A stretch of DNA of 45,580 bases. It comes from an uncultured bacterium. GTDB taxonomy: Bacteria > Armatimonadota > Zipacnadia > Zipacnadales > UBA5352. Each line of letters starts with the position of its first letter. Positions within the stretch are counted from its first letter, which is position 1. The notes under the pieces were generated by a model that worked only from the letters and a program-made list of their open reading frames with translations, made no database searches and was not told where the DNA came from. Positions 11,606-27,738 of the stretch are shown here, piece after piece. The DNA lies in assembly GCA_965603135.1 (NCBI GenBank), contig CBFDBV010000001.1, positions 1 through 45,580 of the forward strand, in the 5' to 3' direction. The position numbers and the translations under genes were made by a program.

Positions 11606-14600
11606 GTGATCGTGTTGCAGAGGGATCGCCTCCTTCTGACACCTGTTGTAGTGATGGCCGCCGCAATCATCCTGGTTACCTGTGCCGACTCCTTTAGTGC
11701 CCCATCGCCGTTGAAGTACCCCTACGCGGGGGGCATTATGCGTACAGGCCCGCACGGCGAGAGGCTTCTGCCCTCCGTCGGGCCAGGGCCCCGGATAGGG
11801 ACGGTGGGGCGTCGGTACCTAGGAATGGAGCGCCCCGACCTGTTCGCGCACCTACGCGCAAAGCAGGGGCCAGGGCCTATCCCGGACTTCCAGCTCACGC
11901 CTACCGCTACCGCCAGTGAGGAACTGTACTCCTTCTCGGCTCCCTACGGTGAGTTGAACCGGATAGTCATCTCCAGCAACGGCGTGGATGACGACGGCGA
12001 TGGGCAGTTCGACCCGGGCGCGACCACGCAGGATGGCACCTTCAACCTCTGGATGCTGCGGGTGGACGGGTCGCAGGTAGCGCAAATCACCAACATGGCG
12101 GGCGATGAGCTGTACCCAGCCTTCAGCCCCGGTGCCCGACTCATAGCCTTCTCCTCCAACACCGGCGGTGTCTGGCAGATCTACACCGTTGAGGTGCTCA
12201 CCGGGGTCGTCACCCAGATAACCTCGAGCCCGGGCAACAAGTACGAGCCCACCTGGTCACCGGATTCCAACTGGCTCGTGTTCAGCGGCGATGAGGCCGG
12301 GAACCGTGACCTCTACATCATCCCCACCGACGGCTCTCTGCTTCCCCAGCAGATAACCACCAATCCTGCCGACGAGACGCAGCCGACGTGGGTGCCAACG
12401 GGCGCTGCCGGCGGCGTGCCGATACTTCTCACGCGCGAGGGCGCGGGCGGTACCGGCAGCCGCGTCTTCGGCATTAGCTCAAACGGCTCGAATGAAACTC
12501 AACTGAGTGACGGCGGCGGCGACCCCCAGGTCAATGACCGGGACCCGGCGTGGCGGCATAACGGCGCGATGATCGCCTTTTCGTCGGACCGGCTGACCGA
12601 GGCCACCGACCTGGACCGGGATTTCAACATCTGGACCATGAGTTCAGCGGGGGAGACCGGGGCGCTGGCTGCCACTCTGCGCAGTAACCTCGACCCCGAG
12701 GACGTGCAGGACGACCGCTATCCCTGCTTCAACCCGGGGCTGAATCCACGGGAGCCGATCCGGGTATTCTTCACCTCCTGGCGGCAGGACGCAGCAGGCG
12801 CTGAGCCGGACATCTGGCGGCTGGAGGCGGCTGACCCGGTGCCGCCGGACCTGATGGACCTGCCCTCGCTGCAGTGGCCGCGCGAAGACTACGACCGCTA
12901 TCGGGCGCCGGGCTCCGAGATAACGGTGTACGCGCAGGTCTTCGACCGTGACAGCGGCGTGGCGCAGGTGGTCGCGGAGTTCAAGGACCCCGACTCGCCC
13001 GAGGACGATAGCCAGGGAATAGATCACAAGCAATTCATTTACACGTCCACCGGGTACTATCGCTCGATCACTAGCATTCCCGGGACGATCGCGTTCGAGG
13101 TGGACTGCGACACTGTGGGTAACGCGCAACTGTTTGACGACGGGGGGCCGGACAGCGGGGACGCCGTGGCTGGCGACGGGATTTTCACGGGCAAGTGGAC
13201 GACGCCGATGTCCCCGAGCGACTACATCATTGACATCCACGTGGCCGACAACGCTGGCAATCAATTCGAGTACGACGACGTCTATGGCCTCACCACCCAG
13301 ATGTTCGAGCCCAAGACCAACGTGCTCTTCGTGGACGACTACTGTGAGGGTCAAGCCTTCCCATGGATGGCCAGCGGAGCGAACAACGACTGTCCCACAC
13401 AGGCCCCGGTGGAGAGCTACTATACTACAAACTGGGGCGACTGCGACGCGTGCTCCAGTACCGCCTACAATACCTTCCGCAGCGGCATACATGGGAACGG
13501 GTGGTTGGGAGAGCCGTACGATATATGGCGGATCATCTGCCGCGGGCCGGTAACCATTACGGACCTCGTCTACTACCTGCCTACCAAGGAAGTGCAGCTT
13601 ACCGTGCCGGATCTGACCGGCACGCGCGAGGTGCGTATCGCAGACCGCGCCGTGGTGTGGGCAGCCCCGCACACCGGCGACACCTGGGTAGCGTCGGGCA
13701 GTCTGGTGGATGCGACGATGCAGGCGACCTTAGCGAACTTCCTCGACCGCGGCGGCCGGCTCATGACCTCAGGCCAAGACATAGGCTTTGCCCTCACACT
13801 TGACGGTACTGTCCAGAACAACTTCTTCGCCAACTATCTGCACGCCAGCTATATCACCGACTCTGTTATCGCACCTAGTAACGGCGGAAGCTGTCCCTGG
13901 TGTTTTTTCGGTCCGTCTCTTGTTAGTGCATCACATCCCGAAATCCAGGGTGTTGCCGACGACCCAGTGGCTCGGCACCCAGGCTGGAACCCATATCACG
14001 ATCCCCCCCTCCTGTTCGCAAACGGGTGGTGGATACACGAACGTGTCTGTTATCCCCAAGATTCCGCCCTCTGTACGGTGTGGCCGGACGGCATTGACGC
14101 TATAGGCGGAGCCACGGTCACTCACAACTACGTTTCTACGGCAGCCGAGGTGGCTGGACTGCGCTACGCGGACCCCGCCGGCGGGTACCGCGTCGTGTAC
14201 TTCGCGTGGGGCTTTGAGCAAATGCATCGTGTGCACCAAGTAGAGACTAACTGGCCTTACGTATGCCGGAACTATCGCGCCAAGCTCATGCACAATACCC
14301 TCTGCTGGCTGCGCACCGGTGGCTTCCAGGGCCGGGTTCTGTCAATAAGCGACGGGAACCAACCTGTCGACGACCCGACACCGATCGTGCAAGTGCGCCA
14401 GGGCAACACCGTCATCGCGGCGGTGCAGTGCGAGGAGGACGGCCGTTACGTTATGGGTGGGCTGCCGCCTGGGGTCTACAGTATGAGTGCCCACCGGCCC
14501 GGGTTTGAGATTGACCACCGGGACGCCGACCGGACGCATGGCGGGCTCAATTATCCGGTAGTTGACTTCGCCATTGTCCGAGCCGAGCCGGGGGCGATCC

Positions 14601-16810
14601 GGGGCACGGTGACCTCGGCGGCGACCGGAGAGCCGCTGGCAGCGGTGGAGGTGTGCGCCTACCAGGTGCCCGTGCCTGAGCCGGAAGACGGCGATGGCAA
14701 CGGCGGGACCGCTTCCGCATCCGCGCCCGCACAGGATGGCGACGGCGATGGCGAACTGGGCGACTTGATAGACTGCACGACGACTGCGGCGGACGGGACC
14801 TATATGATCGGCAATGTCCCGCCCGGCGATGTGGATGTGGTTGCCGATGGGACCGATATCGGCTACGGGACCGAGACGCAGAGGACGACCGTGACCAGCG
14901 GCAACACCAACACCGTTGACTTCGCCCTGGAGGCGGCGCCGGGCGTCATTGTCGCGACCGTGACCGACGAGGATGGCAATCCGATCCAGGATGCGCTTGT
15001 GGAGGTGCTGTTGGGCGCTATTGTGGCGGCCAGCGGCACTACCGATGAGAACGGCGAGGCGCGCATCGAGGTCGAGCCAGGCAGCTACTCGGTGGAGGCG
15101 GAGGCCGCCGGCTACGAGCGGTCCGCGGGCCAGGGAGTTGCGGTCGCCGCGGGCGAAGAGGTTGACATAGCCATCACTCTTCAGCAGCAAGCGGACGGTG
15201 GGCTGTCGGGGCTGATCACGCGGGCAGTGAGCGGCGAGGCGGTCGGAGGCATCACTGTGGAGCTGCTGAGCATCAGCGGGGACACGATCCTGGCCAGCAC
15301 CCAGACCAGCGCCACCGTGACCGATCCGCCCGGAGCCGCGCTCCCGTACAACTACGAGTTCGTAGATGCGAACGGTCAACCGAATGTGCCCACGGGGCAG
15401 GTCATCGTGAGGCCGGACCCGGTGGGCTTCAGCGCCACCCCGCTGCAGCAGATCGTGCGCGTCGAGACCGACCAGGTGACGGATAGCGTGAACTTTACGC
15501 TGAGCAGCATTCACACGTTCCCGGCCGTGCTTCAGTTGATGTCGCTGCCGTTCGACTATCCGGCCACGGACCCGGCGACGGTGCTGGGCGTGCCGGCCAA
15601 CGACCTGAAGATGGCGGCCTTTGAGCCGATTGACGGGCGCTATCACGTGTATCCATCCGCTCCGGCGGACCGGTTCCGCTTGGGCGTAGGCTACTGGCTC
15701 AAGCTCGATGAGATACGCGAACTCTCGCAGCAGGGAATAGAGGCCGGGGACACCTGCGACATCGCGCTGCGGCTCGGGCAGTCGGGCTGGAACATTGTGG
15801 GGGACTTCTTCAGGGCGACCGTTGACTTCTACGCGCTCAACATCGTGGACGGGAACGGCGTGGAGCGCTCGATGCAAGAGGCGCTGGCGGCCGGCCTGGT
15901 GCGCAGCCCGCTGTTTGCGTATGTGCTCGGGGGCTACCAGACGTCGGCGGTGCTGGAGCCGTACGTGGGCTACTGGCTGAAGGTGGCCGACGACGTCTGG
16001 CTGATCGGTGACCGAACCACGGTCACGCTCGCGGCGGGCGAGGCGCCGGCGCGGGCGGCGGTGCTAGCGCCGGAGGACGGATGGCTGCTGCCGCTGGTGG
16101 TGAGCGCCGGGGGCATGCAGGACGCCGCCACCTTCATCGGCTGCGCGGCCAGCGCCAGCGATGGCTTCGATGTGGGCCTGGATGTGCCCAAGCCACCGCC
16201 GCCGGACATGGGGCCGAATGTGTACGCGGCCATCGAACACGGGGACTGGGGCAGCGAAAGTGGAGCCTACGCGGTTGACGTGCGCTCTGCTGCGACGGAT
16301 AATGCGACGTGGCGCCTCAGGATCTCGTGCGAGGGCGCGCAGACGGTGAGTGTGCGCTGGCCCGATATGTCAGGGGTGCCGACAGAGGCGCGGCCCGTCC
16401 TGAGCGACCCGGCAGCAGGCAGGCTGGTGTATATGCGAACCGCGCAGGGCTACCAGTTCAAGCCGCGCGGGGGCAGCCGCATCCTCGAGATCAGGCTGGG
16501 CGGGGATGCGCAGCCGGGGATGGTCGTTTCGGGGCTGGCGACGAGCGCAGCCGGGAACGGGACCGAGATATCATACACACTCTCCTCGGACGCCGAGGTC
16601 GAGGTTACGGTGCTCAACATCGCGGGGCGGTTGGTGCGGACACTGGTCAGTTCAGCCGCCCAGCCGGCCGGCGCCCAGCGCGTCGTGTGGAACGGCGCGA
16701 ACAACGCCGGGGTCAGGGCGCCGAGCGGGATGTATCTGATCGTGGTGAGGGCAAGAGCAGAAGACGGCCAGGAGGCGCAAGCCATCGGGCCGCTGACGGT
16801 AGGACCCTAG
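11606..16810 (+). CDS. Giant secreted/lipoprotein-like multidomain protein (protein A): TolB/PD40 beta-propeller + Ig-like + Cys-rich domain + CarboxypepD_reg repeats + shared C-terminal module
   Basis: Signal/lipobox-like N-terminus (AAAIILVTC|ADS). PD40 repeats (YPAFSPGARLIAFSS, EPTWSPDSNWLVFSG, DPAWRHNGAMIAFSSDR). Ig-like segment with DDGGPDSGDAVAGDGIFTG. Carboxypeptidase-regulatory-like repeats (DGRYVMGGLPPGVYSMSAHRPGFE, ADGTYMIGNVPPGDVDV, ENGEARIEVEPGSYSVEAEAAGYE). C-terminal FlgD-Ig/T9SS-CTD-like sandwich (EVEVTVLNIAGRLVRTL...GMYLIVVRARAEDGQ). GTG start; alternatives exist at 11612 and 11615. Confidence 0.85.
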   Translation: MIVLQRDRLLLTPVVVMAAAIILVTCADSFSAPSPLKYPYAGGIMRTGPHGERLLPSVGPGPRIGTVGRRYLGMERPDLFAHLRAKQGPGPIPDFQLTPTATASEELYSFSAPYGELNRIVISSNGVDDDGDGQFDPGATTQDGTFNLWMLRVDGSQVAQITNMAGDELYPAFSPGARLIAFSSNTGGVWQIYTVEVLTGVVTQITSSPGNKYEPTWSPDSNWLVFSGDEAGNRDLYIIPTDGSLLPQQITTNPADETQPTWVPTGAAGGVPILLTREGAGGTGSRVFGISSNGSNETQLSDGGGDPQVNDRDPAWRHNGAMIAFSSDRLTEATDLDRDFNIWTMSSAGETGALAATLRSNLDPEDVQDDRYPCFNPGLNPREPIRVFFTSWRQDAAGAEPDIWRLEAADPVPPDLMDLPSLQWPREDYDRYRAPGSEITVYAQVFDRDSGVAQVVAEFKDPDSPEDDSQGIDHKQFIYTSTGYYRSITSIPGTIAFEVDCDTVGNAQLFDDGGPDSGDAVAGDGIFTGKWTTPMSPSDYIIDIHVADNAGNQFEYDDVYGLTTQMFEPKTNVLFVDDYCEGQAFPWMASGANNDCPTQAPVESYYTTNWGDCDACSSTAYNTFRSGIHGNGWLGEPYDIWRIICRGPVTITDLVYYLPTKEVQLTVPDLTGTREVRIADRAVVWAAPHTGDTWVASGSLVDATMQATLANFLDRGGRLMTSGQDIGFALTLDGTVQNNFFANYLHASYITDSVIAPSNGGSCPWCFFGPSLVSASHPEIQGVADDPVARHPGWNPYHDPPLLFANGWWIHERVCYPQDSALCTVWPDGIDAIGGATVTHNYVSTAAEVAGLRYADPAGGYRVVYFAWGFEQMHRVHQVETNWPYVCRNYRAKLMHNTLCWLRTGGFQGRVLSISDGNQPVDDPTPIVQVRQGNTVIAAVQCEEDGRYVMGGLPPGVYSMSAHRPGFEIDHRDADRTHGGLNYPVVDFAIVRAEPGAIRGTVTSAATGEPLAAVEVCAYQVPVPEPEDGDGNGGTASASAPAQDGDGDGELGDLIDCTTTAADGTYMIGNVPPGDVDVVADGTDIGYGTETQRTTVTSGNTNTVDFALEAAPGVIVATVTDEDGNPIQDALVEVLLGAIVAASGTTDENGEARIEVEPGSYSVEAEAAGYERSAGQGVAVAAGEEVDIAITLQQQADGGLSGLITRAVSGEAVGGITVELLSISGDTILASTQTSATVTDPPGAALPYNYEFVDANGQPNVPTGQVIVRPDPVGFSATPLQQIVRVETDQVTDSVNFTLSSIHTFPAVLQLMSLPFDYPATDPATVLGVPANDLKMAAFEPIDGRYHVYPSAPADRFRLGVGYWLKLDEIRELSQQGIEAGDTCDIALRLGQSGWNIVGDFFRATVDFYALNIVDGNGVERSMQEALAAGLVRSPLFAYVLGGYQTSAVLEPYVGYWLKVADDVWLIGDRTTVTLAAGEAPARAAVLAPEDGWLLPLVVSAGGMQDAATFIGCAASASDGFDVGLDVPKPPPPDMGPNVYAAIEHGDWGSESGAYAVDVRSAATDNATWRLRISCEGAQTVSVRWPDMSGVPTEARPVLSDPAAGRLVYMRTAQGYQFKPRGGSRILEIRLGGDAQPGMVVSGLATSAAGNGTEISYTLSSDAEVEVTVLNIAGRLVRTLVSSAAQPAGAQRVVWNGANNAGVRAPSGMYLIVVRARAEDGQEAQAIGPLTVGP

Positions 16811-16818
16811 CAGAGGAT

Positions 16819-16858
16819 GGGGATGGGGACAGTCACCTAAGGTGACTGTCCCCCCCTC
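16819..16858 (+). repeat. Palindromic element family 2, copy 1 (13-bp perfect stem); possible terminator after protein A
   Basis: GGGGAT-GGGGACAGTCACC-TAA-GGTGACTGTCCCC-CCTCC. Stem arms at 16825-16837 and 16841-16853. No T-tract follows. Confidence 0.75.
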
Positions 16859-16895
16859 CGCAACCAGGCGTGTGTCGGGAGGGAGAACTGCGAGC

Positions 16896-18815
16896 ATGCA
16901 CAGTCTACGTGGTAGTCTGATATGGCGATATGTCGCGATCTACGTCGCAGCTTCGATGGCGGTACCGTACGCAGTAGTCGGCTTCCCGGCAAATGCAGGG
17001 GCACAGCCGCAGCCGGTGGTCAGGACGGTGACCTGCATTGTGCTGCCTTTGCTGGACCCGACGGGCTTGGATACCGAGGTGCTCAGCGAGAAGGCCACCG
17101 ACGCCATGGCTCTGGCCCTCGAGGACTCGCGCGAGTTCGTCGTCACCTCCAAGCGCGACCTGGAGCGGGAGCTGGGGAACCTGGGCATGACGACGCCGCT
17201 CTCCGTCGAGGAGCAGGTGCGGCTCGCCAAGCGTCTCGACGTGGAGAAGGTCCTGACCGGACGGGTGACGGCGCTGGCGGTAGACGGGCGCACCGGGGAG
17301 TGTGCCGTCAAACTGCAAGTGAGAGTGCTGGATACTGCCACGGTGGAGTACCTCCAGGGGACGGAGGTGGCGATCAGGACGAAGGTAGTACCGGGATGGA
17401 CCGGGGACGAGGGCCAGGTCATCAACGAGGCACTGCGGCAGGCCGCTGAGACGGTCACCATGCAGATGCTGGGAGGCCGGATAACGACGGGCTACGTCAC
17501 CTCGGTGAACGATGTCGGGGTCGCGATCATCAATGTGGGCGCGGGGGACGGCGTGCTAGCGGGGACAGAGATGGTGCTGATGCGGCCCACCTATCAGAAG
17601 GACCTGGACGTGATGACAACGGTGAAGGTGGGTACGGTGGCCGTCGGCAAAGTGGCGTCGGATATGTGCTACGCCAGGCCCGTCGCCGGCGGCAGGGCAA
17701 AGGTGGGCGACAGGGCGTACGCCCTCTACAAGCCGCCGGTGCGGTTGGCGCTTGCGCGGCGGTCCAAAGGTATCAGCAAGGCCGCGACGTTGGTGGCGGC
17801 TCTGGGACTGGTGTTCGCGCTGGTGGAGGTGGGGTCAGGCGAGCATGTCGGCGGTGCGCCCGAAGGGGTCTGCGCGAATCTCTATCAGCAGTCGCCCGGC
17901 GATGAGGCGGTCATCAGGATACACGTGCCAAATCAGTGGGTGCCGCTGACTGAGCAGATACATGGGTGGCTGTTCTTCCGTAAAGAAGGGACGCCGAGCC
18001 TGGCACTGTCGCCCGAGAACCTGGTCGGGGTGGTGGACGAGTCGCGGCTGCCGGGGAACGTGTGGGACGACTATCCTGAGTCGGTGGCTGACCTTCAGAT
18101 AGCCTACGGGTTCATCTACTACAACGAGGAGGGGGAGCAGGAGGACGGGGATGTTGACATCGTCTACAATCATCCCCCGCTGGAGGAAGGGTCAACCTAC
18201 TACTACCGAGTGCGCCGGATCACGGAGCCGCAGTACCCGGCAGGCAGCGGCGCGCCGATCACCGCACAACAAGTGGGCACCCAGCAGCAGGTGTTCGTGG
18301 AGCCCTCCATAGACGTGGACCCGTACGACGCTCTGAGCGAAGGCAGCGCCCCCACCAACCCGGTGACGTACTTCAACCCGACGATACTGCAGTCACCTGA
18401 CGACGGAGCCCAGAACCAGTCTACGACCTCCATCACCTTCACCTGGGACGGGGCTCGGGGGGCGAACGAGTACCTCCTGCAAGTGTTCCCGGACGACGAC
18501 CCGGACTGCCTGCGCAACGCGGTCCATCAGAGTCCGGTGATGCGGCAGGGCACGGCTGGGACGATGCACTGGACCATAGACGCGAACTTCACGGCGAACA
18601 GCAGGTTCTACTGGAGAGTGGGCGCGCGGCGCTCGGGCGAGGCGGAGCCGGTGAACGGGTTCGGCAACCAGACGGGGTGGCTCTTCAGCTCGACCCGGAG
18701 CTTCAGGACGGCCGTTGCGCCACCGCCGCCGCCCGGCACGAGTTCAGCGAGCGGGCAGGCGGGCGTCACCGTGCGGCACGGCTTCTTCACACTGCCGCGT
18801 TACGAACATGAGTGA
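16896..18815 (+). CDS. Bitopic envelope protein B1: signal/anchor + LpoB/CsgG/TolB_N-like alpha/beta domain + beta-barrel-like domain + TM helix + two FN3/Ig-like domains
   Basis: ATG 16896 sits after GGGAGGGA; the ORF is open from 16842, inside the palindrome. N-terminal hydrophobic stretch IWRYVAIYVAASMAVPYAVVGFPANAGAQ. LpoB/TolB_N-like pattern (CIVLPLLDPTG...ATDAMALALEDSREFVVTSKRDLEREL...VEKVLTGRV). Internal TM RRSKGISKAATLVAALGLVFALVEVG. FN3-like signatures YYYRVRRI and FTWDGARGANEYLLQV...FYWRVGA. Confidence 0.7.
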   Translation: MHSLRGSLIWRYVAIYVAASMAVPYAVVGFPANAGAQPQPVVRTVTCIVLPLLDPTGLDTEVLSEKATDAMALALEDSREFVVTSKRDLERELGNLGMTTPLSVEEQVRLAKRLDVEKVLTGRVTALAVDGRTGECAVKLQVRVLDTATVEYLQGTEVAIRTKVVPGWTGDEGQVINEALRQAAETVTMQMLGGRITTGYVTSVNDVGVAIINVGAGDGVLAGTEMVLMRPTYQKDLDVMTTVKVGTVAVGKVASDMCYARPVAGGRAKVGDRAYALYKPPVRLALARRSKGISKAATLVAALGLVFALVEVGSGEHVGGAPEGVCANLYQQSPGDEAVIRIHVPNQWVPLTEQIHGWLFFRKEGTPSLALSPENLVGVVDESRLPGNVWDDYPESVADLQIAYGFIYYNEEGEQEDGDVDIVYNHPPLEEGSTYYYRVRRITEPQYPAGSGAPITAQQVGTQQQVFVEPSIDVDPYDALSEGSAPTNPVTYFNPTILQSPDDGAQNQSTTSITFTWDGARGANEYLLQVFPDDDPDCLRNAVHQSPVMRQGTAGTMHWTIDANFTANSRFYWRVGARRSGEAEPVNGFGNQTGWLFSSTRSFRTAVAPPPPPGTSSASGQAGVTVRHGFFTLPRYEHE

Positions 18816-18880
18816 GACGCCGAGCCCGCCGACGGGGATGTTGCGGAGGTGCGGCAACCGGGCGCGAGAGCAGGGCTTAT

Positions 18881-20209
18881 ATGGCGAGGGGAGTGGTGAG
18901 AGCAGCAGGTGCGGGGGGCCGGGCAGTGCTGGCTGCCGCGGTGCTGATGCTCACGCTGGGGCCGGAGGCGACGGGCAGCACTCATGAGTGGACGGTGGCC
19001 GCCTATCTGAGCGGCGATGGGGACCTGCGGGCGGCGGCCCACCGCTATCTGGACATGGTGGCGAGGGGGACAGACCGGCCCGGGTGGGCGGCGGCTGTGC
19101 AGCTCGATGAGACGGACGCCGAAGGGCACTGCTTGGCCAGCCGGCACCTGTGGCTGTGGGAGGACGGACAGAGGAAGCACGTAAGCGAGAGCGTTCCCGG
19201 CGACGAGGCGGGAGTGAACATGGGGGCGCGGGAGACGCTTGGCGAGTTCCTGGGATGGGTCAGAGAGCAGGCGCCGGCGCAACGATATGCTCTGATCATC
19301 ATGGGGCACGGGACCGGCCTGGCGGCGCCGGGAGGCGGTCTGGAGGGGGGCCTGGCGAACTCGGGCGTGGCGCTGGACACCAGTGCGGGAGGCGATTGTC
19401 TCAGCGCCGTGGAGCTGGCGGGCGGCATTGAGGATGGCTTTGGGGAGGGGGAGGCGCCCGGCCTGGATGCGTTGTTTCTGGACTGCTGTTACGGCGGCTG
19501 CCTGGAGGTAGCGTACGAGTTGCGGGATGCTGCGGGGTACCTCACAGGCGCGCCGGGCGAGATGCCTAACCCGGGCCTGCCCTGGGATACGATCTTGAGC
19601 AGCGTGAGCGGCGACGGCGAGGTGGAGGGCAGAGAACTGGTGGAGACCTGCCTGCGGGTGGCCCAGGAGCAGGACGGCGAGCAGACCGAGCGGGTGAGCC
19701 TGACGGCGATAGACCTGAGCGGGATGTCGAGCGCGCGGCAGAGCCTCCAGGAGTTCGCCACAGCCGCCGCCGGGCGGATGGCGGAGATAGCGCCGGCGGT
19801 GACCCTTGCGCATAGCCGTTCGGCGACCTGGGGCAGTCAGCGCGAGTTGTGCGACGCAGGCGTCCTGCTGGAGTCGCTGGCCGAACGCCTGGCGGATGAC
19901 GGTCTCGCCAGGGCCGCGCGGGCCGCAGCAGAGACAGTGAAGGCGAGCGTTGTCGGCAGAGCCGGCGAGCAGGGCGAGCAAGGCGTCGGGATAGGGATCT
20001 TCTTTCCGGGCGCGCTGAGCGGTGTGCCGGAGAGCTATGAGCCGCAGCGATGCAGCTTTGCGAGGGACAGCGGCTGGGGGGCGTTCTTGAGGGCCTATCT
20101 GCATAGATTGCGGGACTTGATGGAGCGGAAGGCAGAACGCGAAGATACGGACGGCAGCGGGGCGACAGTGCAGCCCCCGGTGGTGAAGGCGGTAGTGCAG
20201 GAAACCTAG
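18881..20209 (+). CDS. Clostripain-like cysteine peptidase (MEROPS C11, clan CD), secreted
   Basis: C11 hallmarks: WTVAAYLSGDGDLRAAAHRYLDMV, catalytic His context YALIIMGHGTG, catalytic Cys context LDALFLDCCYGGCLEVAYEL. Signal-like MARGVVRAAGAGGRAVLAAAVLMLTLGPEA. The ORF is open from GTG 18812, which overlaps the B1 stop, so the start is uncertain. Confidence 0.75.
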   Translation: MARGVVRAAGAGGRAVLAAAVLMLTLGPEATGSTHEWTVAAYLSGDGDLRAAAHRYLDMVARGTDRPGWAAAVQLDETDAEGHCLASRHLWLWEDGQRKHVSESVPGDEAGVNMGARETLGEFLGWVREQAPAQRYALIIMGHGTGLAAPGGGLEGGLANSGVALDTSAGGDCLSAVELAGGIEDGFGEGEAPGLDALFLDCCYGGCLEVAYELRDAAGYLTGAPGEMPNPGLPWDTILSSVSGDGEVEGRELVETCLRVAQEQDGEQTERVSLTAIDLSGMSSARQSLQEFATAAAGRMAEIAPAVTLAHSRSATWGSQRELCDAGVLLESLAERLADDGLARAARAAAETVKASVVGRAGEQGEQGVGIGIFFPGALSGVPESYEPQRCSFARDSGWGAFLRAYLHRLRDLMERKAEREDTDGSGATVQPPVVKAVVQET

Positions 20210-20232
20210 TTGCAGCAGGCGCTCCAAGGCTC

Positions 20233-20272
20233 GGGGGCGGGACAGTGACCCAAGGTGACTGTCCCCATCCCC
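20233..20272 (-). repeat. Palindromic element family 2, copy 2 (inverted relative to copy 1)
   Basis: Minus strand reads GGGGAT-GGGGACAGTCACC-TTG-GGTCACTGTCCC-GCCCCC. The 19-nt 5' part GGGGATGGGGACAGTCACC is identical to copy 1. The stem has one mismatch. Confidence 0.75.
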
Positions 20273-20289
20273 GAGAAGGAGGAGTCAAA

Positions 20290-23200
20290 GTGAGTCGGCT
20301 TCGTCACCGATATGTCTCCCCTTATCTCGTTGCACTGGCACTGATCCTGTCGGCGACGTCAGGGGTGGGAACGGGGTGGGCGGCCCAGGGCACCGCGCTG
20401 GAGGACCTGGCCGGGCCGTTGCGGACGCTGGCGGTGGCAGCAGCACGCGGGGAGGTGCTGCCCTTCGCGTTCCCGCTGCCTGCCAAGGGGCCCGAGGACA
20501 TGGTGCTGGTGGTGGTGGAGTTCCGCAGCGAGGCAGCCGCGGCCAACACCTCGCTGGCGCCCTACGGGGGACAGGTGCAGATACGGCGTGACCGGCGCGT
20601 GCAGGCTTTGCTGCCGGCGAGCAGCCTGTCGGCAGTGGCGGGCCTGCCGCAAGTATCGCAGGTGCGGCCGCCCCGGTATATGTACCCGCTCCAGGGCTAC
20701 GGGGCGAACTACAGCGAAGGAGTGCAGTTGTGCGGAGCGACCGCATACCACGCGGCAGGGATGTTCGGCGCCGGTGCGGACGTGGCAATACTTGACATGG
20801 GCTTTGCCGATTACGCCAACGCAGAGATACCGCCGGGCGTGAGTACCATCTCGTTCGCCTCCGGCGGGACAATGGGCACGGACTACCACGGCACTGCGTG
20901 CGCCGAGATCGTCGCGGACATGGCGCCGATGTGCAATATGACGCTCATCGCGGTTGACACGGATATGTCCGTGGAGATGGCTACGGAGTACGTGGTCAAC
21001 CAGGGCTTCGATGTCAGCTTGATGTCGCTGGGCAGCTTTGGGGGGCCCTACGACGGCACGCACCCGGAGTCGCAGGAGGTCAACCGCGCGCGCGCGGCTG
21101 GGCTGTTCTGGGTGAACTCGGCCGGGAACCACGCCGAGCGCCACTACCAGGGGCAGTTCACTGATGCAGATGGCGACGGCCTGAACGAGTTCGGCGGCGG
21201 CGACGAGACGATTGATGTCTACCTGTTCCCCGGCGTCTTCCAGGCGTTCCTTAGCTGGTATCAGACCACTCCGACCGGACTGACCAACCACGACTTCGAC
21301 CTGGTGCTGGTTGACGGGTCCGATGCGGAGATCGCGCGCTCGGGCTACAGCCAGAACGGGGACGATCCACCGGCGGACGCGCTGCTGGCCACGATAGCTG
21401 TGGAGGGCCAGTACGGTCTGAAAATCGAGTACTATGCAGGACCCGCCAACCCGGGGGACTTCTTCCAGCTCTTCCTGCCGGACTATGACGTGGAGACCCA
21501 GCATCAGGTCCCCGAGTCGAGCTTGCTCATCCCGGCCGAAGCGACGGGCGCCTACGCGGTAGGCGCCACGCGCGGGGCGGTAGACCCTAACGCGACCGTG
21601 ATGGTGCCCATAGACGGGTTGGAGCCTTTCAGCTCCCAGGGGCCGGTGGCGGGCCATCCGGAGATCATCAAGCCCAACATAACCGCGCCGGATGCGGTGA
21701 CAACGAGCCTAGCAGCGCAGGACCCGGGCCTCTCTCCGTTCTACGGTACGTCAGCAGCGGCACCGCACGTGGCGGGTGCGGCCGCGCTGGTGTTCTCTGA
21801 GGACGCGCTGAGAACCGCCGATGAGGTCGAGAAGATACTCAATGACCTGGCGTTGGACCTGCCCGGGGAGCCGGAGCCCGATCCCAACAATCAGTACGGT
21901 GAGGGTCGTCTGCGGCTGCGGGCGGGCGTGGACAGCCGGGCGCCGACGATAACGATCGCGTTCCCGCGCCACGGCGAGACCATCACAACCGCGACGCCGA
22001 CGCTCACCGCCTTCATCCAGGACGATGGCAGCGGCGTTGACCCGACCACGATCAGGATAGAGCTGAATCAGATAGAGGTCTACAATGGCAGCAGCCCCGG
22101 CCAGCAGCCCGACCCCTACGATGCGGCCACGGGCAGGCTGTCATGGCCGGACCCCGATGGTGACTGGTGGAACGCGAACGGCCCACTGGCCCACACGAAC
22201 CACATGATCATCATAGACTGCTCGGACTACTCGGCGAACGAGGCGACGAGCGCAGTCACGAACTTCCGCGTGGCCTCGGCGACCATCCCCGGAGGCGTGC
22301 ATATCGTATCGTTCCCGTACCGCGATCTGGCGGTAACCGACCCGAGCGTGGTTCTGGGCACGCCGCTGGCGGACCTGGCGATGGTGCGCTGGTGGCCGGA
22401 GGACGAGGGTAAGCTCAAGTATCACTTCTATCCCGACACGCGGGCGAGCCTGGTGCCGCCGGATTGCACGCAGGCGAATATGGACGATCGCACGGTGCCG
22501 TATCCGCCGGCAGGGCTGGCGTATTTCTTGAGCCTGCCGCAGACGGCGGTGCTGGCGATAGAGGGGATGACCCTGGACGATATCCCCAGCACGCACATCA
22601 GGCTCTATTACGGGCAACATCGGCCTCGCGGCTGGAATCTCATCGGCAATCCCTATGAGCAGCCTGTGAACTGGGGCACCGTGCAGTTCGTGACCGATGG
22701 CGTGCGCCAGGACCTGCGCGAGGCGATTGATGCGGGGGTGACGGAGGGGGTGCTGTTCGACTACGTGGGCCCGAGCGGCGGACAGGGCGGCTACTACAGC
22801 TTCACGACGGACCCGACGGCCGGGGCGCTGGAGCCGATGAAGGGCTACTGGCTGCACGTGAACCAGGACACGCGGGTTCTCGTCTACGGCGGCGGCATGG
22901 GCACTGCGGCACAGCCGACGAGTGCGCAGCCCCAGGCCGCAGCCGATGGCTGGCTGGTTAGACTGTGCGTGCGCGCGGGCGGGTATCAAGACCCGAGCAA
23001 CTACGTCGGCGTCAGCTCGGCCGCCAGCGCGGGATATGACCCGGCCCACGATGTGCCGGAGCCGCCGGCGTTGGTGGGGACGCTCCAGATGTATATGCCG
23101 CGACCGGGCTGGGGGAGGCACGCGGGGCGCTACGCCAAGGACGTAAGAGGAACAACGGACAGCGGTCAGTGGGATGTCGAGGTGCTCTGCGAACTGGCTG

Positions 23201-23685
23201 ACAGCGAGGTCGAGATCACCTGGCCGCAGTTGAACGCCCAGGTGCCCGGCGAGGTGAAGCTGGTTCTGGAGGACCTGGACGGCGGCAGGCAGGTGTATAT
23301 GCGGACTGCCTCGGCATATCGCTTCCGCAGCGGGCCTGAGGGGTGTGTGCGCCACCTGAGAATCCGGGCCGAGACGGGGAGCGACCGGATGCTGACGCTG
23401 AGCGGCGTGGCGGCGGCGAGGGCGGCCGGAGGCGGGGCGGTGTTCACCTACGCGGTCTCGAGGACGGCGGAGGTGACGGTCGAGGTGAGGAACATCGCGG
23501 GCCGGCTGGTGAAGATGTTCACGCCGCGACGGGTTGAGGGTGGCGGGCAGCAGAGCCTGGTCTGGAACGGGATGAGCCAGTTCGGCAGCCCGGTTCCGGC
23601 GGGCCGCTACCTGGTGCGGCTCACGGCGCGAGCGGAAGATGGGCAGACCGTGCAGGGGATCCGGCCGTTCGAGATTATGCGATAA
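20290..23685 (+). CDS. Secreted subtilisin-family serine protease (S8) carrying the shared C-terminal module
   Basis: GTG 20290 sits 7 nt after AAGGAGGAG. Signal peptide YLVALALILSATSGVGTGWAAQG. Catalytic triad contexts GADVAILDMGF (Asp), DYHGTACAEIVADMAP (His), FYGTSAAAPHVAGAAALV (Ser), with oxyanion VNSAGNHA. Ig-like insert APTITIAFPRHGETITTATPTLTAFIQDDGSGVDPTTIRIEL. C-terminal module 22285-23682. Confidence 0.9.
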   Translation: MSRLRHRYVSPYLVALALILSATSGVGTGWAAQGTALEDLAGPLRTLAVAAARGEVLPFAFPLPAKGPEDMVLVVVEFRSEAAAANTSLAPYGGQVQIRRDRRVQALLPASSLSAVAGLPQVSQVRPPRYMYPLQGYGANYSEGVQLCGATAYHAAGMFGAGADVAILDMGFADYANAEIPPGVSTISFASGGTMGTDYHGTACAEIVADMAPMCNMTLIAVDTDMSVEMATEYVVNQGFDVSLMSLGSFGGPYDGTHPESQEVNRARAAGLFWVNSAGNHAERHYQGQFTDADGDGLNEFGGGDETIDVYLFPGVFQAFLSWYQTTPTGLTNHDFDLVLVDGSDAEIARSGYSQNGDDPPADALLATIAVEGQYGLKIEYYAGPANPGDFFQLFLPDYDVETQHQVPESSLLIPAEATGAYAVGATRGAVDPNATVMVPIDGLEPFSSQGPVAGHPEIIKPNITAPDAVTTSLAAQDPGLSPFYGTSAAAPHVAGAAALVFSEDALRTADEVEKILNDLALDLPGEPEPDPNNQYGEGRLRLRAGVDSRAPTITIAFPRHGETITTATPTLTAFIQDDGSGVDPTTIRIELNQIEVYNGSSPGQQPDPYDAATGRLSWPDPDGDWWNANGPLAHTNHMIIIDCSDYSANEATSAVTNFRVASATIPGGVHIVSFPYRDLAVTDPSVVLGTPLADLAMVRWWPEDEGKLKYHFYPDTRASLVPPDCTQANMDDRTVPYPPAGLAYFLSLPQTAVLAIEGMTLDDIPSTHIRLYYGQHRPRGWNLIGNPYEQPVNWGTVQFVTDGVRQDLREAIDAGVTEGVLFDYVGPSGGQGGYYSFTTDPTAGALEPMKGYWLHVNQDTRVLVYGGGMGTAAQPTSAQPQAAADGWLVRLCVRAGGYQDPSNYVGVSSAASAGYDPAHDVPEPPALVGTLQMYMPRPGWGRHAGRYAKDVRGTTDSGQWDVEVLCELADSEVEITWPQLNAQVPGEVKLVLEDLDGGRQVYMRTASAYRFRSGPEGCVRHLRIRAETGSDRMLTLSGVAAARAAGGGAVFTYAVSRTAEVTVEVRNIAGRLVKMFTPRRVEGGGQQSLVWNGMSQFGSPVPAGRYLVRLTARAEDGQTVQGIRPFEIMR

Positions 23686-23716
23686 TCGCCTGGGTACGAG
23701 AGGAGCTGACTGCCCG

Positions 23717-26578
23717 GTGGCATGGCAAGGCAATCACTGGAGCAGAATTGCAGCAAAGCAGTTGGCGCTGTCGGGATGGGTGTTCTGCGCACTGCTGCTT
23801 GCGTCGCACGTCGCCCAGGCGCAGACCTATGCAATCGAGGTTATGCATCCAGCGGGCCTCACGCGGCTGCTCGTGGCCGACCCCAGGCTGATCCAGGTCG
23901 GCACCACCGGCACCCCTCCCCGGCCGACCTATGTCTATCGGCCGGCGGGGCGCTTCCAACTGTGGACCGGCTCCACCGTAGCGGCCGGTGGTAGCCCTCT
24001 GGTAGCGGGCGACGAGAACCTGCCGATCGCCAGCGCGGCGTACCTAGGCGGCACCACCTGGAACTTGCTGGACTTCACCTCCAAGCTGACGATCTCGGTG
24101 GACTACCAGCAAGGAACCGGCACCGGTGGCCTCTTCGACATCCACGACCTGATGTACGGGCAGTCGGCGACGACGGACCCCGCGGCCCTGCCCGTGTGGT
24201 GGCAACAGGCGCCGGTGGCCGGCGCGCGCGACGTATCGGGAATCGCCTACCTTGACCCGACCGGGGCGGACCCGGTGGCGGGAGCGCCGATGCTGCGCGT
24301 CCGGCACACCTTCGCCCTGGTGCACGATGCGGTGATGCTGGAGTACATCGTCTATAACGACACCGCGGCCTCACACGCCGTCGGACTGCGAGTGATGATT
24401 GACGCCCGGTTCGGCGGAGCCTCCGATCGGGACGGCACCTACATCGTGCTGGATGATGGCTCGGTGATCTCGGCCGAAGCGAAGATGCCTGACCCGAACT
24501 ACCCGGGTCAGGTTATGCCCAAGACCTGGGTGAGCTACGACGACGTGGACAACCCGCTGGTGGCCGTGAGGGGGACGGTGGATGCGGCGGAAGTGCACAA
24601 CGCGAGCATAGCGACCGAGAGTGCCGGCCTGCCCGACGAGATTGGCTTCGGGCAGTACCGGAACATCGGGATGACGAATCAGTTCGATTTCGTGCCTAAC
24701 CCTGGCGCCGCCCTGACCGGCGAGGACTGGGCCTACGCGGTGAAGTGGGAGGAGCGCCAGCTCGGGCCCGGTCAGAGCCGCCGCTATGTCACGTACTATG
24801 GTCTGGGCGCGGCCGCGGTTGACTACGATCCGCCGTACGCGCTGGCGGCGTATGCGCCGGCGAAGCTGAATGTGGTGGCCGCGGATGACCCCTCGACGCC
24901 GCAGGTGGAGCAGTACTACCTGACGGATCAGAGTGGGCAGTCGCCCTTCCCGCTGACGGCGCTACTGGACAACTTCGGGGCGGGGCCGATCATCAATGCG
25001 GGCGTGCGCATCAGTCTCCCCTCCGGGCTCGAGCTTTCGCCGGACACGCAACCGCGCACCATCAACCTGGGCGTGATAAACCGAAATCAGGCGCCGCTGC
25101 CGCAGGCGCAGTGGATGGTGCGGGCCACGGCCCTGCGTCCGGGGTGGGCCGAGGTGAAGTTCACCGGCCCCATGGGCAAGGTCGTGAGCAGGACGATCAG
25201 CATCCCGGCGATCCCGGTCATATCGCCGCTGCCCTCGCTGGTGGGCCTGGAGATGCTCTCGGTGCCGTATGAGTTTGTCAACTCGGATGCGTCAAACGTC
25301 TTTGGCAGCCTGACGGACTCGGTATTCCCGGGCGGGCCGGTGGCGCTGTGGCGGTGGAACCCGACCAGTCAGGATTACAGGGCGTATCCGGATCCGTGGA
25401 CCGGGAACATCGCGCCGGGCAGGGGCTACTGGCTGCTGAACCAGAACCGGGAGAGCGTGGTGCTGCCGCCGACGGCGCAGCCGGTCCCGGCCAACCAGAC
25501 CTACGGGGTGCCGCTGGAGGCCGGCTGGAACCAGATCGGCAATCCCTTCGTGGTGCCGCTGGGCTTCTACAAGATACGGGTGATCGGGCCGCAGGGCGTT
25601 GAGTGGTCCATGGCCGATGCGATCACGCGAGGCCTGCTGCTGCCCGTGCTGTACGCGTATGACGCGGAAGCGAACGAGTACACCTGGGCGACGTCAATGC
25701 AGCAGACGGAGGTTGTGCCCTACCACGGGTACTGGCTGCTGAGCTACGCGGACATAACGCTGCTGTTCCCGCCGCCGACGTTGTTTGGGCCGGCGTCAGT
25801 GGCTGAAGCGACCGTGCCCGGGGATGAGGACGACGGGTGGCGGGTGGGCCTGGAGGTGGCGGCAGCGGGTCAGAGCCGAACGGGACGCAGCTTCGGCGTC
25901 TCTGCGAGCGCGGAGAACGGCGTGGACCTTGCCGATGTCCCAAGCCCACCGTCCGTGTTCAGGCCAGGCCCGACGCTGGACGCGTTCTTCACGATGGGCG
26001 CAGACTTCAGCGGCGCTCCCTACCTGGTGGATGTCAAGGCAGATGGCGGAGGCGAGCGGACCTGGGCCTTCACGGTCGTGGCCGAGGCCGCGGGCGCGCC
26101 GGTGACAATCAGGTGGCCCTCCCTGTCCGCGGAGCTGCCCAGGGATCTGGTGGCGACGCTGGAGGATGTGAGCGCGGGACGCAGGACGTACATGCGCACG
26201 AGCGGCGCGTACACGTACAACCCCGGCGTGGGCGGCGCGCGGCAGTTCAGGGTCCTGGTGCGGCCCCGAGCGGGGGCAACCCTTGGGCTGACGGGCGTGA
26301 CCTGCGCGCAGGTGGACGTGGGTGGGGTCGCGGTCGCTTACACGCTGAACGCCGAGGCGAAGGTTGACGTGGAGGTGCGCAACATCGCGGGCCGAATCGT
26401 GCGCCGGGTGGCCGTGGACAAGGCCTGCGCAGCCGGACAGAACACAGTGGTGTGGTCCGGCGTGGACGAGCGCGGGATGAGGGTGCCCGCGGGGCTGTAT
26501 GTGGTGCAGGTGACGGCGCGGTCGCCTGATACGGGCGAGAGTATGAGCGTGATTCGCACCGCGCAAGTGTGGCGATAG
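23717..26578 (+). CDS. Secreted protein of unknown function (protein D) carrying the shared C-terminal module
   Basis: GTG 23717 sits about 10 nt after GAGAGGAG. The ORF is open from 23639 but that would overlap the S8 gene. Signal peptide LALSGWVFCALLLASHVAQA|Q. In the ~500-aa N-terminal region I recognise no family. C-terminal module 25232-26575 (GYWLL, GWNQIGNPF, HGYWLL, IRWPSL, YMRTSGAYTY, VEVRNIAGRIVRR). Confidence 0.75.
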   Translation: MAWQGNHWSRIAAKQLALSGWVFCALLLASHVAQAQTYAIEVMHPAGLTRLLVADPRLIQVGTTGTPPRPTYVYRPAGRFQLWTGSTVAAGGSPLVAGDENLPIASAAYLGGTTWNLLDFTSKLTISVDYQQGTGTGGLFDIHDLMYGQSATTDPAALPVWWQQAPVAGARDVSGIAYLDPTGADPVAGAPMLRVRHTFALVHDAVMLEYIVYNDTAASHAVGLRVMIDARFGGASDRDGTYIVLDDGSVISAEAKMPDPNYPGQVMPKTWVSYDDVDNPLVAVRGTVDAAEVHNASIATESAGLPDEIGFGQYRNIGMTNQFDFVPNPGAALTGEDWAYAVKWEERQLGPGQSRRYVTYYGLGAAAVDYDPPYALAAYAPAKLNVVAADDPSTPQVEQYYLTDQSGQSPFPLTALLDNFGAGPIINAGVRISLPSGLELSPDTQPRTINLGVINRNQAPLPQAQWMVRATALRPGWAEVKFTGPMGKVVSRTISIPAIPVISPLPSLVGLEMLSVPYEFVNSDASNVFGSLTDSVFPGGPVALWRWNPTSQDYRAYPDPWTGNIAPGRGYWLLNQNRESVVLPPTAQPVPANQTYGVPLEAGWNQIGNPFVVPLGFYKIRVIGPQGVEWSMADAITRGLLLPVLYAYDAEANEYTWATSMQQTEVVPYHGYWLLSYADITLLFPPPTLFGPASVAEATVPGDEDDGWRVGLEVAAAGQSRTGRSFGVSASAENGVDLADVPSPPSVFRPGPTLDAFFTMGADFSGAPYLVDVKADGGGERTWAFTVVAEAAGAPVTIRWPSLSAELPRDLVATLEDVSAGRRTYMRTSGAYTYNPGVGGARQFRVLVRPRAGATLGLTGVTCAQVDVGGVAVAYTLNAEAKVDVEVRNIAGRIVRRVAVDKACAAGQNTVVWSGVDERGMRVPAGLYVVQVTARSPDTGESMSVIRTAQVWR

Positions 26579-26651
26579 GCGGTCCTGGACTTTGGGCGGG
26601 CCGGCAGGAGATGGGGTCACACCAGAGCCGAGCAAATAGGGGAAATGCACG

Positions 26652-27719
26652 ATGACAGCGATCAGATCGAGCAAGCTGGCGCGCCCGGTGAGCATCCTGT
26701 TGATGGCCGCGATGATGGCCCTGTCACTGCCGGTCGGGTTTGTGACGCCGGCAGAGGCACAAGCGGTGGCAGGGATGCTCCTGCTTTTCCCGGTGTTGGA
26801 CAGAAGTGATGGCGGCCATCCGGACGCTGCGGACCGGATGACCTCGGCGCTGCAAATGGCGATCGCGGAGGCCACGGGCCTGCGCTGCGCGGAGTTCTCG
26901 GCCAGCTCCCCGATGGTCAGGCGCGCGGTGAAGGAGGGGCAGATCCGCTCGGTGGACGTCGAGGCTGAGGTGGCCGATCCCGTCAAGGCCATCCAGATCG
27001 GCTACGCGCTTGGAGTGGACGAGGTGTGCCTGGCGATGATAACCTCCATCACGGTTCAGGAGGAGCCTCGGCGTTTCGAGGTGGTGCTGGCCGGGCAGAC
27101 CTACGACGTAGCCTCGAATGTTGACCTGGAGAGCAGGCAGGTGGTGGAGAAGCCGGTGGTGAGCAGCAGCTTCGGGGTTTCGGGCCAGAGTCTGGAGAGA
27201 GCGGGCTACACGGGCAGCGACAGCCCGCTGCTGCACGAGGCGATCAAGAAGGCGGCCTGGAAGGCCGCCCAGGTGCTCGCCGGCAAGCCGGCGGCAGAGA
27301 TGGCGGGGGTCGCGCGCAAGCGATCCTCCAACACCTGGAAGTGGATCATCGCGGGCTTGATCGTGGCAGGCCTGGCAATGGCGGCGCATGACTCCACCAG
27401 CCACCCGGCCACCGGCTACTCGCCGGACGCGGTGGCCCCGGTGCCGCTGTCAATGGACATTGAGCCCACGAGCATCCGACTGCACTGGCAGGCCCCGCCG
27501 GGAACATCGCTGGTGGTGCTGCGCTACCAGATACAGCGCGCGGTGAATGGCACCGCGTGGAACTTCATTGACAACGGCAACGTTGACGCGAACGACACCA
27601 GCTTCGCGGACTTCAACGTCACCGGTAGCAACACCTACGCCTACCGCATCCGGGCCCAGTACACCACGTCCGGGCCCTCGGCGTGGGCGAACTTCGATCA
27701 GGTGACCTTCCCGGATTGA
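26652..27719 (+). CDS. Bitopic envelope protein B2 (shorter paralogue-like counterpart of B1): signal + LpoB/TolB_N-like domain + TM + one FN3 domain
   Basis: Signal VSILLMAAMMALSLPVGFVTPAEA|QA. Alpha/beta domain (LLLFPVLDRSDG...MTSALQMAIAEATGLRCAEF...VDEVCLAMITSI). TM ARKRSSNTWKWIIAGLIVAGLAMAA. FN3 (IRLHWQAPPGTSLVVLRYQIQRAVNGTAW...YAYRIRAQYTTSGPSAW). Confidence 0.7.
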   Translation: MTAIRSSKLARPVSILLMAAMMALSLPVGFVTPAEAQAVAGMLLLFPVLDRSDGGHPDAADRMTSALQMAIAEATGLRCAEFSASSPMVRRAVKEGQIRSVDVEAEVADPVKAIQIGYALGVDEVCLAMITSITVQEEPRRFEVVLAGQTYDVASNVDLESRQVVEKPVVSSSFGVSGQSLERAGYTGSDSPLLHEAIKKAAWKAAQVLAGKPAAEMAGVARKRSSNTWKWIIAGLIVAGLAMAAHDSTSHPATGYSPDAVAPVPLSMDIEPTSIRLHWQAPPGTSLVVLRYQIQRAVNGTAWNFIDNGNVDANDTSFADFNVTGSNTYAYRIRAQYTTSGPSAWANFDQVTFPD

Positions 27720-27738
27720 GGTGTTGGACCGAGGCAGA

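Follow-up and report, generated by a model that had tools for sequence, protein, structure and literature searches.

A clostripain-family (C11) cysteine peptidase gene in a phylum-wide Armatimonadota envelope cluster

The closest described relatives of the enzyme considered here are clostripain of Hathewaya histolytica (PDB entry 9cip), the founding member of peptidase family C11; a set of Bacteroidales enzymes comprising PmC11 of Parabacteroides merdae, thetapain and iotapain of B. thetaiotaomicron and the P. distasonis zymogen (3uws, 6n9j, 6nag and 6mzo); and fragipain of B. fragilis (5dyn). The C11 catalytic dyad sits at the ends of strands β5 and β6 (His133 and Cys179 in PmC11). PmC11 is cleaved at Lys147, in the loop past the catalytic His (His133 + 14), and clostripain at Arg181 and Arg190, with excision of the nonapeptide between the two Arg residues to give a two-chain enzyme (PMC4850288). 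Autoactivation after Lys or Arg is a typical trait of C11 enzymes, not an obligatory one. According to abstracts of the relevant work, C11 enzymes can act as trans-activating convertases of the B. fragilis toxin (BFT) and related toxins (e.g. PMC8406203); fragipain, which activates pro-toxins, is the functional model for a C11 enzyme maturing secreted proteins in trans and, as far as these abstracts indicate, is not encoded in an operon with its substrates. A further clan CD cysteine peptidase, the C25-like PorU sortase of the type IX secretion system (T9SS; 6za2), is associated with proteins ending in an immunoglobulin (Ig)-like domain. Here we describe a C11 gene at positions 18881..20209 (+ strand) of a stretch of 45,580 nucleotides (the window, meaning the whole stretch that was analyzed; ~67% G+C) from contig C1 of a 4.9-Mb, 648-contig metagenome-assembled genome (MAG; 84% complete) of the lineage Ca. 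Zipacnadia, class Zipacnadia, phylum Armatimonadota. The gene lies in a phylum-wide Armatimonadota envelope cluster that encodes three surface proteins sharing a C-terminal module, the proteins B1 and B2, and a putative outer-membrane barrel (outer-membrane protein, OMP). The C11 family itself is very common; the unusual part of the gene is its genomic context.

The gene encodes a genuine clostripain-family (C11, clan CD) cysteine peptidase with an intact His143/Cys203 dyad. Its product (442 residues plus stop) matched Pfam PF03415 (Peptidase_C11) with an E-value of 1.2e-22 and 81.4 bits, above the curated cut-off of 25.8 bits, and a phmmer search of the PDB returned C11 enzymes only, with 6mzo at 4.5e-13. 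The original prediction, drawn from the letters of the DNA, had held that the His (IIMGHGTG, residues 139-146) and Cys (FLDCCYGG, residues 199-206) contexts of the family were intact, and alignment bears this out: GHGTG falls on SHGTG and LDCCY on FDACY of 6mzo, which places the catalytic His143 at 19307..19309 (+) and the S1-pocket Asp201 and catalytic Cys203 of the LDCC motif at 19481..19489 (+), Cys203 itself occupying 19487-19489. H143, D201 and C203 are invariant in an alignment of 16 close orthologues. Asp201, present in the window enzyme and in its own family, stands two residues N-terminal of Cys203, as does the S1 Asp177 of PmC11, and implies a predicted specificity for Arg or Lys at P1 in this genome; clostripain resembles the window enzyme in this predicted preference via the conserved Asp.

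The structural model leads to the same family. An AlphaFold2 (AF2) model computed from 16 orthologues (pLDDT 79, pTM 0.79) puts His143 and Cys203 each just past the C-terminal end of a strand (residues 133-141 and 195-201, respectively). AF2 secondary structure and Foldseek alignments delimit a C11-type helical C-terminal domain at residues ~250-424 (19628..20152, +), followed by a disordered tail (residues 425-442). All ten Foldseek matches in the PDB at E ≤ 0.001 belong to family C11, namely thetapain/iotapain, 6mzo, clostripain, fragipain and PmC11; for the full-length single-chain entries, TM-scores (TMt) were 0.70-0.74 over 393-471 columns. No C25 (PorU/gingipain) or C13 (legumain) structure was among the Foldseek matches, no C13 Pfam match was found in the protein, and the protein carries neither a T9SS-type C-terminal domain (CTD) nor an Ig domain of its own.

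Among the described systems, the Bacteroidales enzymes share with the window enzyme the same Pfam C11 domain, dyad and S1 Asp, a caspase-like α/β/α core followed by the C11 C-terminal domain (Foldseek E-values of 1e-15 to 1e-17, TMt in the range just given), a similar size (~400 residues) and an N-terminal export signal (PMC4850288); they are only 16-17% identical to it, and none of them shares its genomic context in an Armatimonadota envelope cluster. Clostripain has the same fold and dyad (Foldseek 2.4e-15, phmmer 2.4e-06), but its two-chain processing sites, the two Arg residues, are absent from the window enzyme, which scored 27.1 bits against the clostripain equivalog TIGR02806 and so did not reach its 550-bit cut-off. 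Fragipain has the same C11 fold as well (Foldseek 1.8e-08; phmmer 1.3e-09 on the Cys-containing chain).

The window enzyme thus has every structural hallmark of C11 membership save the typical basic autoprocessing site. The counterpart of the L5 loop in which PmC11 and clostripain undergo autoprocessing (residues 148-169; 19322..19387, +) is disordered in the model (pLDDT <50), and no Lys or Arg occurs in the 61 residues from His143 to Cys203, either in the window enzyme or in its closest relatives, P0002 and P0006. The loop of PmC11, in contrast, has the activating Lys147, and in 11 of the 16 aligned orthologues an Arg stands 11-17 residues past the catalytic His. If Asp201 gives basic P1 specificity, canonical self-activation after a basic loop residue is not possible in the window enzyme, because its His-Cys loop holds no such residue. 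The missing site makes the enzyme a small test case for C11 zymogen control.

Two N-termini can be read from the sequence. The open reading frame (ORF) can begin at an in-frame GTG (18812..18814, +) that overlaps the B1 stop codon (TGA, 18813-18815), as the original prediction had pointed out; the overlap exists, but this GTG is probably not the C11 start. The 23 extra residues that it would add (MRRRARRRGCCGG...) have no counterpart in C11 orthologues, and ATG 18881 is the more likely start because the orthologues begin at or near its position, P0001 (96% identical) beginning MARGVV. With this start the gap between B1 and C11 is 65 nt. The signal peptide put forward at the same time is upheld as a prediction: residues 1-32 (18881..18976, +) follow the n-, h- and c-region pattern of a Sec signal as read by eye, with a basic MARGVVRAAGAGGR, a hydrophobic AVLAAAVLMLTL and a predicted cleavage after A-T-G, ahead of S. 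Residues 11-25 form a lone helix in the AF2 model, an equivalent hydrophobic N-terminus is found in every aligned C11 orthologue, and no lipobox Cys was seen on reading the N-terminal sequence. The N-terminus fits a Sec-type signal, and the export route is to that extent predicted; the protein is probably an active secreted endopeptidase.

The placement of the gene is strongly conserved within the order to which the MAG belongs. As originally noted, C11 is wedged between B1 and the gene of an S8 subtilase, and the order CoaE, BigA, B1, C11, S8-module, D-module, B2, Big_1 (ending in Phe), UvrB is identical in 26 loci from seven families, the C11 position being kept in 26 of the 27 contiguous loci. 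Given this conserved placement in a co-directional cluster, a functional tie between C11 and the cluster is reasonable. A scan of the MAG itself found a single C11 gene. A profile search recovered an orthologue in 52 of 61 relatives, including 30 of the 34 high-quality genomes, and gave a single match in 46 of the 52; distribution counts, here and below, depend on profile thresholds and MAG completeness. Five of the nine apparent absences were checked. Contigs break inside the cluster in G004 and G014, the end of a contig cuts the gene in G037, and G041 holds a divergent copy that escaped the first search. The sole true loss among the five is in G051 (93% complete), where B1 is followed by an AT-rich non-coding spacer of ~560 bp (L078, G051:C124, 2613-3175) and then by S8; no C11 was found elsewhere in that genome, and the cluster is retained. 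In a maximum-likelihood tree the cluster C11s of the order group as a single clan (100/99 support), apart from all other sampled Armatimonadota C11s. The catalytic Cys is kept in all 26 order orthologues and the catalytic His in 25, with Tyr in its place in one (L034/G028).

In G004 and G014, which belong to the window's own family (L057-L060), the contigs end inside B1 and inside the S8 module, leaving C11 and most of S8 in the gap. The B1-C11-S8 stretch seems hard to assemble, perhaps through strain variation in the fast-evolving C11 and S8 heads.

Outside the order the module and the cluster persist while the standalone peptidase does not. Among 301 Armatimonadota genomes, 272 have the module (by a profile of its first two domains, D1 and D2) and 199 have a C11 match of any kind. 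About 79 genomes carry the module with no C11 match, several of them 97-99% complete, and at least 6, mostly of family f31, carry C11 with no module. A crude two-by-two table of module and C11 (~193 / 79 / 6 / 23) yields an odds ratio near 9, which we do not count as support for co-occurrence, as it is driven by a few families (f31 and f13) and by generic C11 matches. The cluster, too, spans the phylum. Each of the 12 loci examined outside the order has BigA, B1 or both, with module-bearing genes next in line, and many have coaE and the Big_1 protein as well, giving the order coaE, BigA, B1, protease-module, D-module, (B2), Big_1/putative OMP, uvrB (window 11606-29808; loci L046-L056 and L061). 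In none of the 12 does a standalone C11 stand between B1 and the next gene. The gene in that slot has an S8 head in four lineages, an M6 head in G322 and a head with no identified domain in G061. In G149 and G087, from two other families, its product (1048 and 1013 residues) joins a C11 head directly to the module. The C11 head of G087 lacks both His and Cys, and that of G149 has Ser for Cys. Other C11 paralogues likewise belong to fusion proteins, with the module as partner in L042 and L073 and with MAM, Big_5 and FlgD_ig domains in L043. Since the slot gene elsewhere is a C11-module fusion or has an S8 or M6 head, C11 domains in Armatimonadota are typically cargo rather than machinery. Finally, the surroundings (~10 kb) of 13 standalone C11 genes from other classes are devoid of module genes.

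Eight of these 13 standalone C11s (L066-L070 and L074-L076) have Ser for the catalytic Cys (FDASLMQ) and group together in their clade. On L011, an unrelated metagenome contig, a type II secretion operon (secretin, T2SSE, T2SSF, pseudopilin) ends with the gene of a distant C11, P0015 (10001-11317; 28% identity, with a lipobox-like N-terminus).

Co-occurrence with module genes, which the original prediction had offered as a check, thus holds inside the order (26 loci) and fails outside it (0/12 loci with a standalone C11). The comparative evidence argues against C11 as the enzyme that generally sorts the module proteins or removes their CTD, and the idea of a dedicated C-terminal peptidase or transpeptidase in the manner of PorU or legumain is not supported, given the ~79 module-bearing genomes devoid of C11 and the occurrence of the cluster elsewhere with no standalone C11. 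As the standalone C11 is an order-specific add-on, the mechanism by which the module is sorted or anchored is to be sought in the phylum-wide genes, namely B1, the OMP and perhaps others. By itself the C11 gene changes little, since the protease family that it joins is already very large; it is of use as an entry point to a coaE-uvrB cluster conserved across Armatimonadota, in which the slot head is swapped between S8, C11 and M6 or inactivated.

Our tentative proposal, to which we would give somewhat less than an even chance, is that C11 is a secreted endopeptidase, an accessory peculiar to this order, whose targets for limited proteolysis in trans are the surface proteins of its own cluster. 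Under this proposal C11 would be co-transcribed with the cluster and Sec-exported as a soluble protein, and would cut the co-encoded surface proteins in trans, trimming, activating or releasing them, for example, in a way that would resemble the fragipain-type C11 convertases. It would in this manner supply the protease activity that in other lineages resides in a module-bearing protein with an S8, C11 or M6 head. A number of observations weigh against it. No substrate or cleavage site for C11 was found on inspection of the module linker and the S8 prodomain junction. There is no conserved Lys or Arg in the disordered D1-D2 linker or at the domain boundaries of the module, and there are none at all in the linkers of the window S8 and D proteins, although we set this absence aside as evidence either way for cleavage of the module. 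At the S8 prodomain junction, only ~15 of 21 orthologues have a basic residue. Within the cluster C11 diverges most: in loci from other genera and families of the order it is 26-39% identical to its window counterpart, whereas its neighbors are 33-65% identical to theirs; its S1 Asp is replaced in three families, by E (f6), Q (f5 g12) and A (f2); and G051 has lost it. Divergence together with a changing S1 residue would fit a degradative enzyme at least as well as dedicated processing, and C11, which has no module, may never reach the surface.

These points lead to the strongest of the alternatives, namely that C11 is payload only, a secreted degradative (protein-foraging) protease carried in a very stable operon with no specific action on its neighbors. 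This we regard as doubtful, while giving it real weight. The repeated use of C11 domains in the phylum as cargo heads on the module, or standalone elsewhere, speaks for it, as do the standing of C11 as the fastest-evolving gene of the cluster with a variable S1 residue (D/E/Q/A), and its loss in G051 and the His to Tyr change in G028, with the cluster retained in each. The C11 family is also huge and often multidomain (18,016 representatives at E ≤ 0.001 and 1,417 at E ≤ 1e-30 in a profile search of 1.84 billion), and Zipacnadia have been described as encoding extracellular peptidases for polypeptide degradation, S8 being mentioned and C11 not (PMC10290634). Mere carriage is harder to reconcile with the 26 of 27 contiguous loci, in seven families, that keep the C11 position. 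C11 also lacks the module of the cluster's other exported enzymes and has no evident outer-membrane route, and an Arg/Lys protease of broad activity, if it stayed in the periplasm, would endanger the cell.

Limited proteolysis in trans could also have a single target, with C11 as the zymogen activator of the adjoining S8 subtilase, from which it would remove the I9-like prodomain. The subtilase (20290..23685, +; Pfam S8 and FlgD_ig) most likely starts at GTG 20290, behind a GAAGGAGGAG ribosome-binding site, has an intact D/H/S triad and ends in the module (22237-23682). In all loci of the order C11 is immediately upstream of this gene, whose product begins with a region resembling a prodomain; just before the predicted mature N-terminus, Arg or Lys is present in many orthologues. 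Fragipain would be the precedent. The reading is nevertheless unlikely. Subtilases normally autoprocess, the S8-module genes of other classes manage with no C11, and the basic residue at the prodomain junction is not conserved. At least three lineages of the order (L002; L028 and L009; L014, L015 and L029), in a comparison of 24 loci, have lost the S8 triad, and in all of them the C11 dyad is intact. That the C11 dyad is kept where the S8 triad is gone speaks against a role confined to S8 activation and suggests that C11 has a protease activity of its own to supply.

The degenerate S8 heads lack Asp and His and sometimes Ser (L002:1503-5063; L028:7392-10799; L009:11097-14612; L014:5622-9086; L015:11205-14414; L029:9294-12584). 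They are pseudo-proteases retained as surface proteins, and their module stays conserved.

The remaining alternatives concern the module, a C-terminal region of ~450 residues common to the proteins ending at 16810, 23685 and 26578 (31-36% identity by blastp) and found in at least six further copies elsewhere in the MAG. Its AF2 model (pLDDT 88) consists of three β-sandwich domains, D1 (~15-217), D2 (~238-380) and D3 (FlgD_ig; ~388-480), with a disordered linker between the first two, and Foldseek returned only generic matches of Ig- or fibronectin type III (FN3)-like character at low TM-score, including FlgD and the Ig/CTD region of PorU (6za2). The last residue of the module is Arg in 58 of 70 copies inside the order and in 37 of 42 outside it. 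This terminal Arg looks like a C-terminal recognition signature, in kind like the terminal Phe of outer-membrane barrels. The window BigA is an exception, ending ...TVGP (16805-16807); the other two modules end at 23680-23682 and 26573-26575. A literature search for a C-terminal sorting domain in Armatimonadota found nothing relevant.

In the first of them C11 would be a peptidase or transpeptidase dedicated to the module, cutting off or exchanging either all of it or just its last FlgD_ig/CTD-like domain, as a PorU analogue in a non-T9SS sorting system made up with B1, B2 and the OMP. The presence of a clan CD enzyme beside three module proteins, the synteny kept across the order and the PorU entry among the Foldseek matches of the module would all suit such a role, as would the last domain of the module, an FlgD_ig match that also shows weak similarity to the CTD end of the PorU, PorZ and Por_Secre_tail models. 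The PorU model NF033707, however, has no match in the C11 protein. Its matches in the genome are confined to module proteins, where they cover the last ~70 residues (model positions ~1021-1094, the CTD; 18-23 bits against a cut-off of 420 bits), so that the resemblance to PorU lies in the CTD-like ends of these proteins, the peptidase being of C11 rather than C25 or C13 fold and having no CTD or Ig domain itself. No SprA (TIGR04189) match was found in the MAG, a weak test, since the control set has none either and the MAG is 84% complete. The obligate partnership of PorU with CTD-type substrates has no equivalent for C11 and the module in the 301 genomes: the module is sorted phylum-wide without this C11, its terminal Arg is equally common with and without C11, C11 also occurs as a head preceding the module in the same protein, among others in G087, where it is dead, and in G149, where Cys is changed to Ser, and no module gene lies within ~10 kb of the 13 standalone C11s of other classes. 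With the loss in G051 and the unconserved S1 Asp in addition, we consider this reading very improbable. We give as little credence to a version confined to one order, in which an Armatimonadota-specific, non-T9SS system for sorting surface proteins took on a C11 lacking the module as its processing enzyme. This C11 would be an independently evolved functional analogue of PorU; B1, B2 and the OMP would form the system, the proteins with the three-domain module ending in Arg would be its cargo, and cleavage would occur during or after export.

An accessory endopeptidase acting in trans, as we propose, would have the following proteins around it in the window. Gene A (BigA; 11606..16810, +) encodes PD40/Tricorn-like propellers, CarboxypepD_reg repeats and the C-terminal module (15470-16807), as identified by Pfam and module blastp, and has orthologues in all loci. 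B1 (16842..18815, +, with an alternative start at 16896 in the ORF list) is the envelope protein directly upstream of C11 and stands beside BigA phylum-wide. Downstream of S8, a third module-bearing protein, D (23639..26578, +; module 25244-26575), was recognized by Pfam and module blastp. B2 (26652..27719, +; from synteny and Pfam) and the Big_1 protein (27721/27739..29808, +; from Pfam and synteny) close the cluster ahead of uvrB. The Big_1 product, ending ...GGLTTF, is a candidate outer-membrane barrel by its C-terminal Phe. Neither B1 nor B2 has a Pfam family above threshold, and no sequence relative was found in the PDB for B1 or for the putative OMP. At their N-termini B1 and B2 resemble each other weakly (22% identity, E = 0.002 pairwise), and the C-terminal parts of both are FN3-like. 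The seven cluster genes are co-directional and separated by short gaps, with one promoter-like site, upstream of BigA; terminator-like matches in the cluster are no more frequent than in shuffled sequence.

A hairpin of the form GGGGACAGTCACC-N-GGTGACTGTCCCC brackets B1 and C11. One copy, with a 14-bp stem, lies in the BigA-B1 spacer (16825..16853) and a second in the C11-S8 spacer (20239..20265). We considered these palindromes as a locus-specific signal and rejected the idea, as both are members of a dispersed, genome-wide family resembling repetitive extragenic palindromes (REP-like), which in the MAG comprises 33 full hairpins and 219 arms on 106 contigs.

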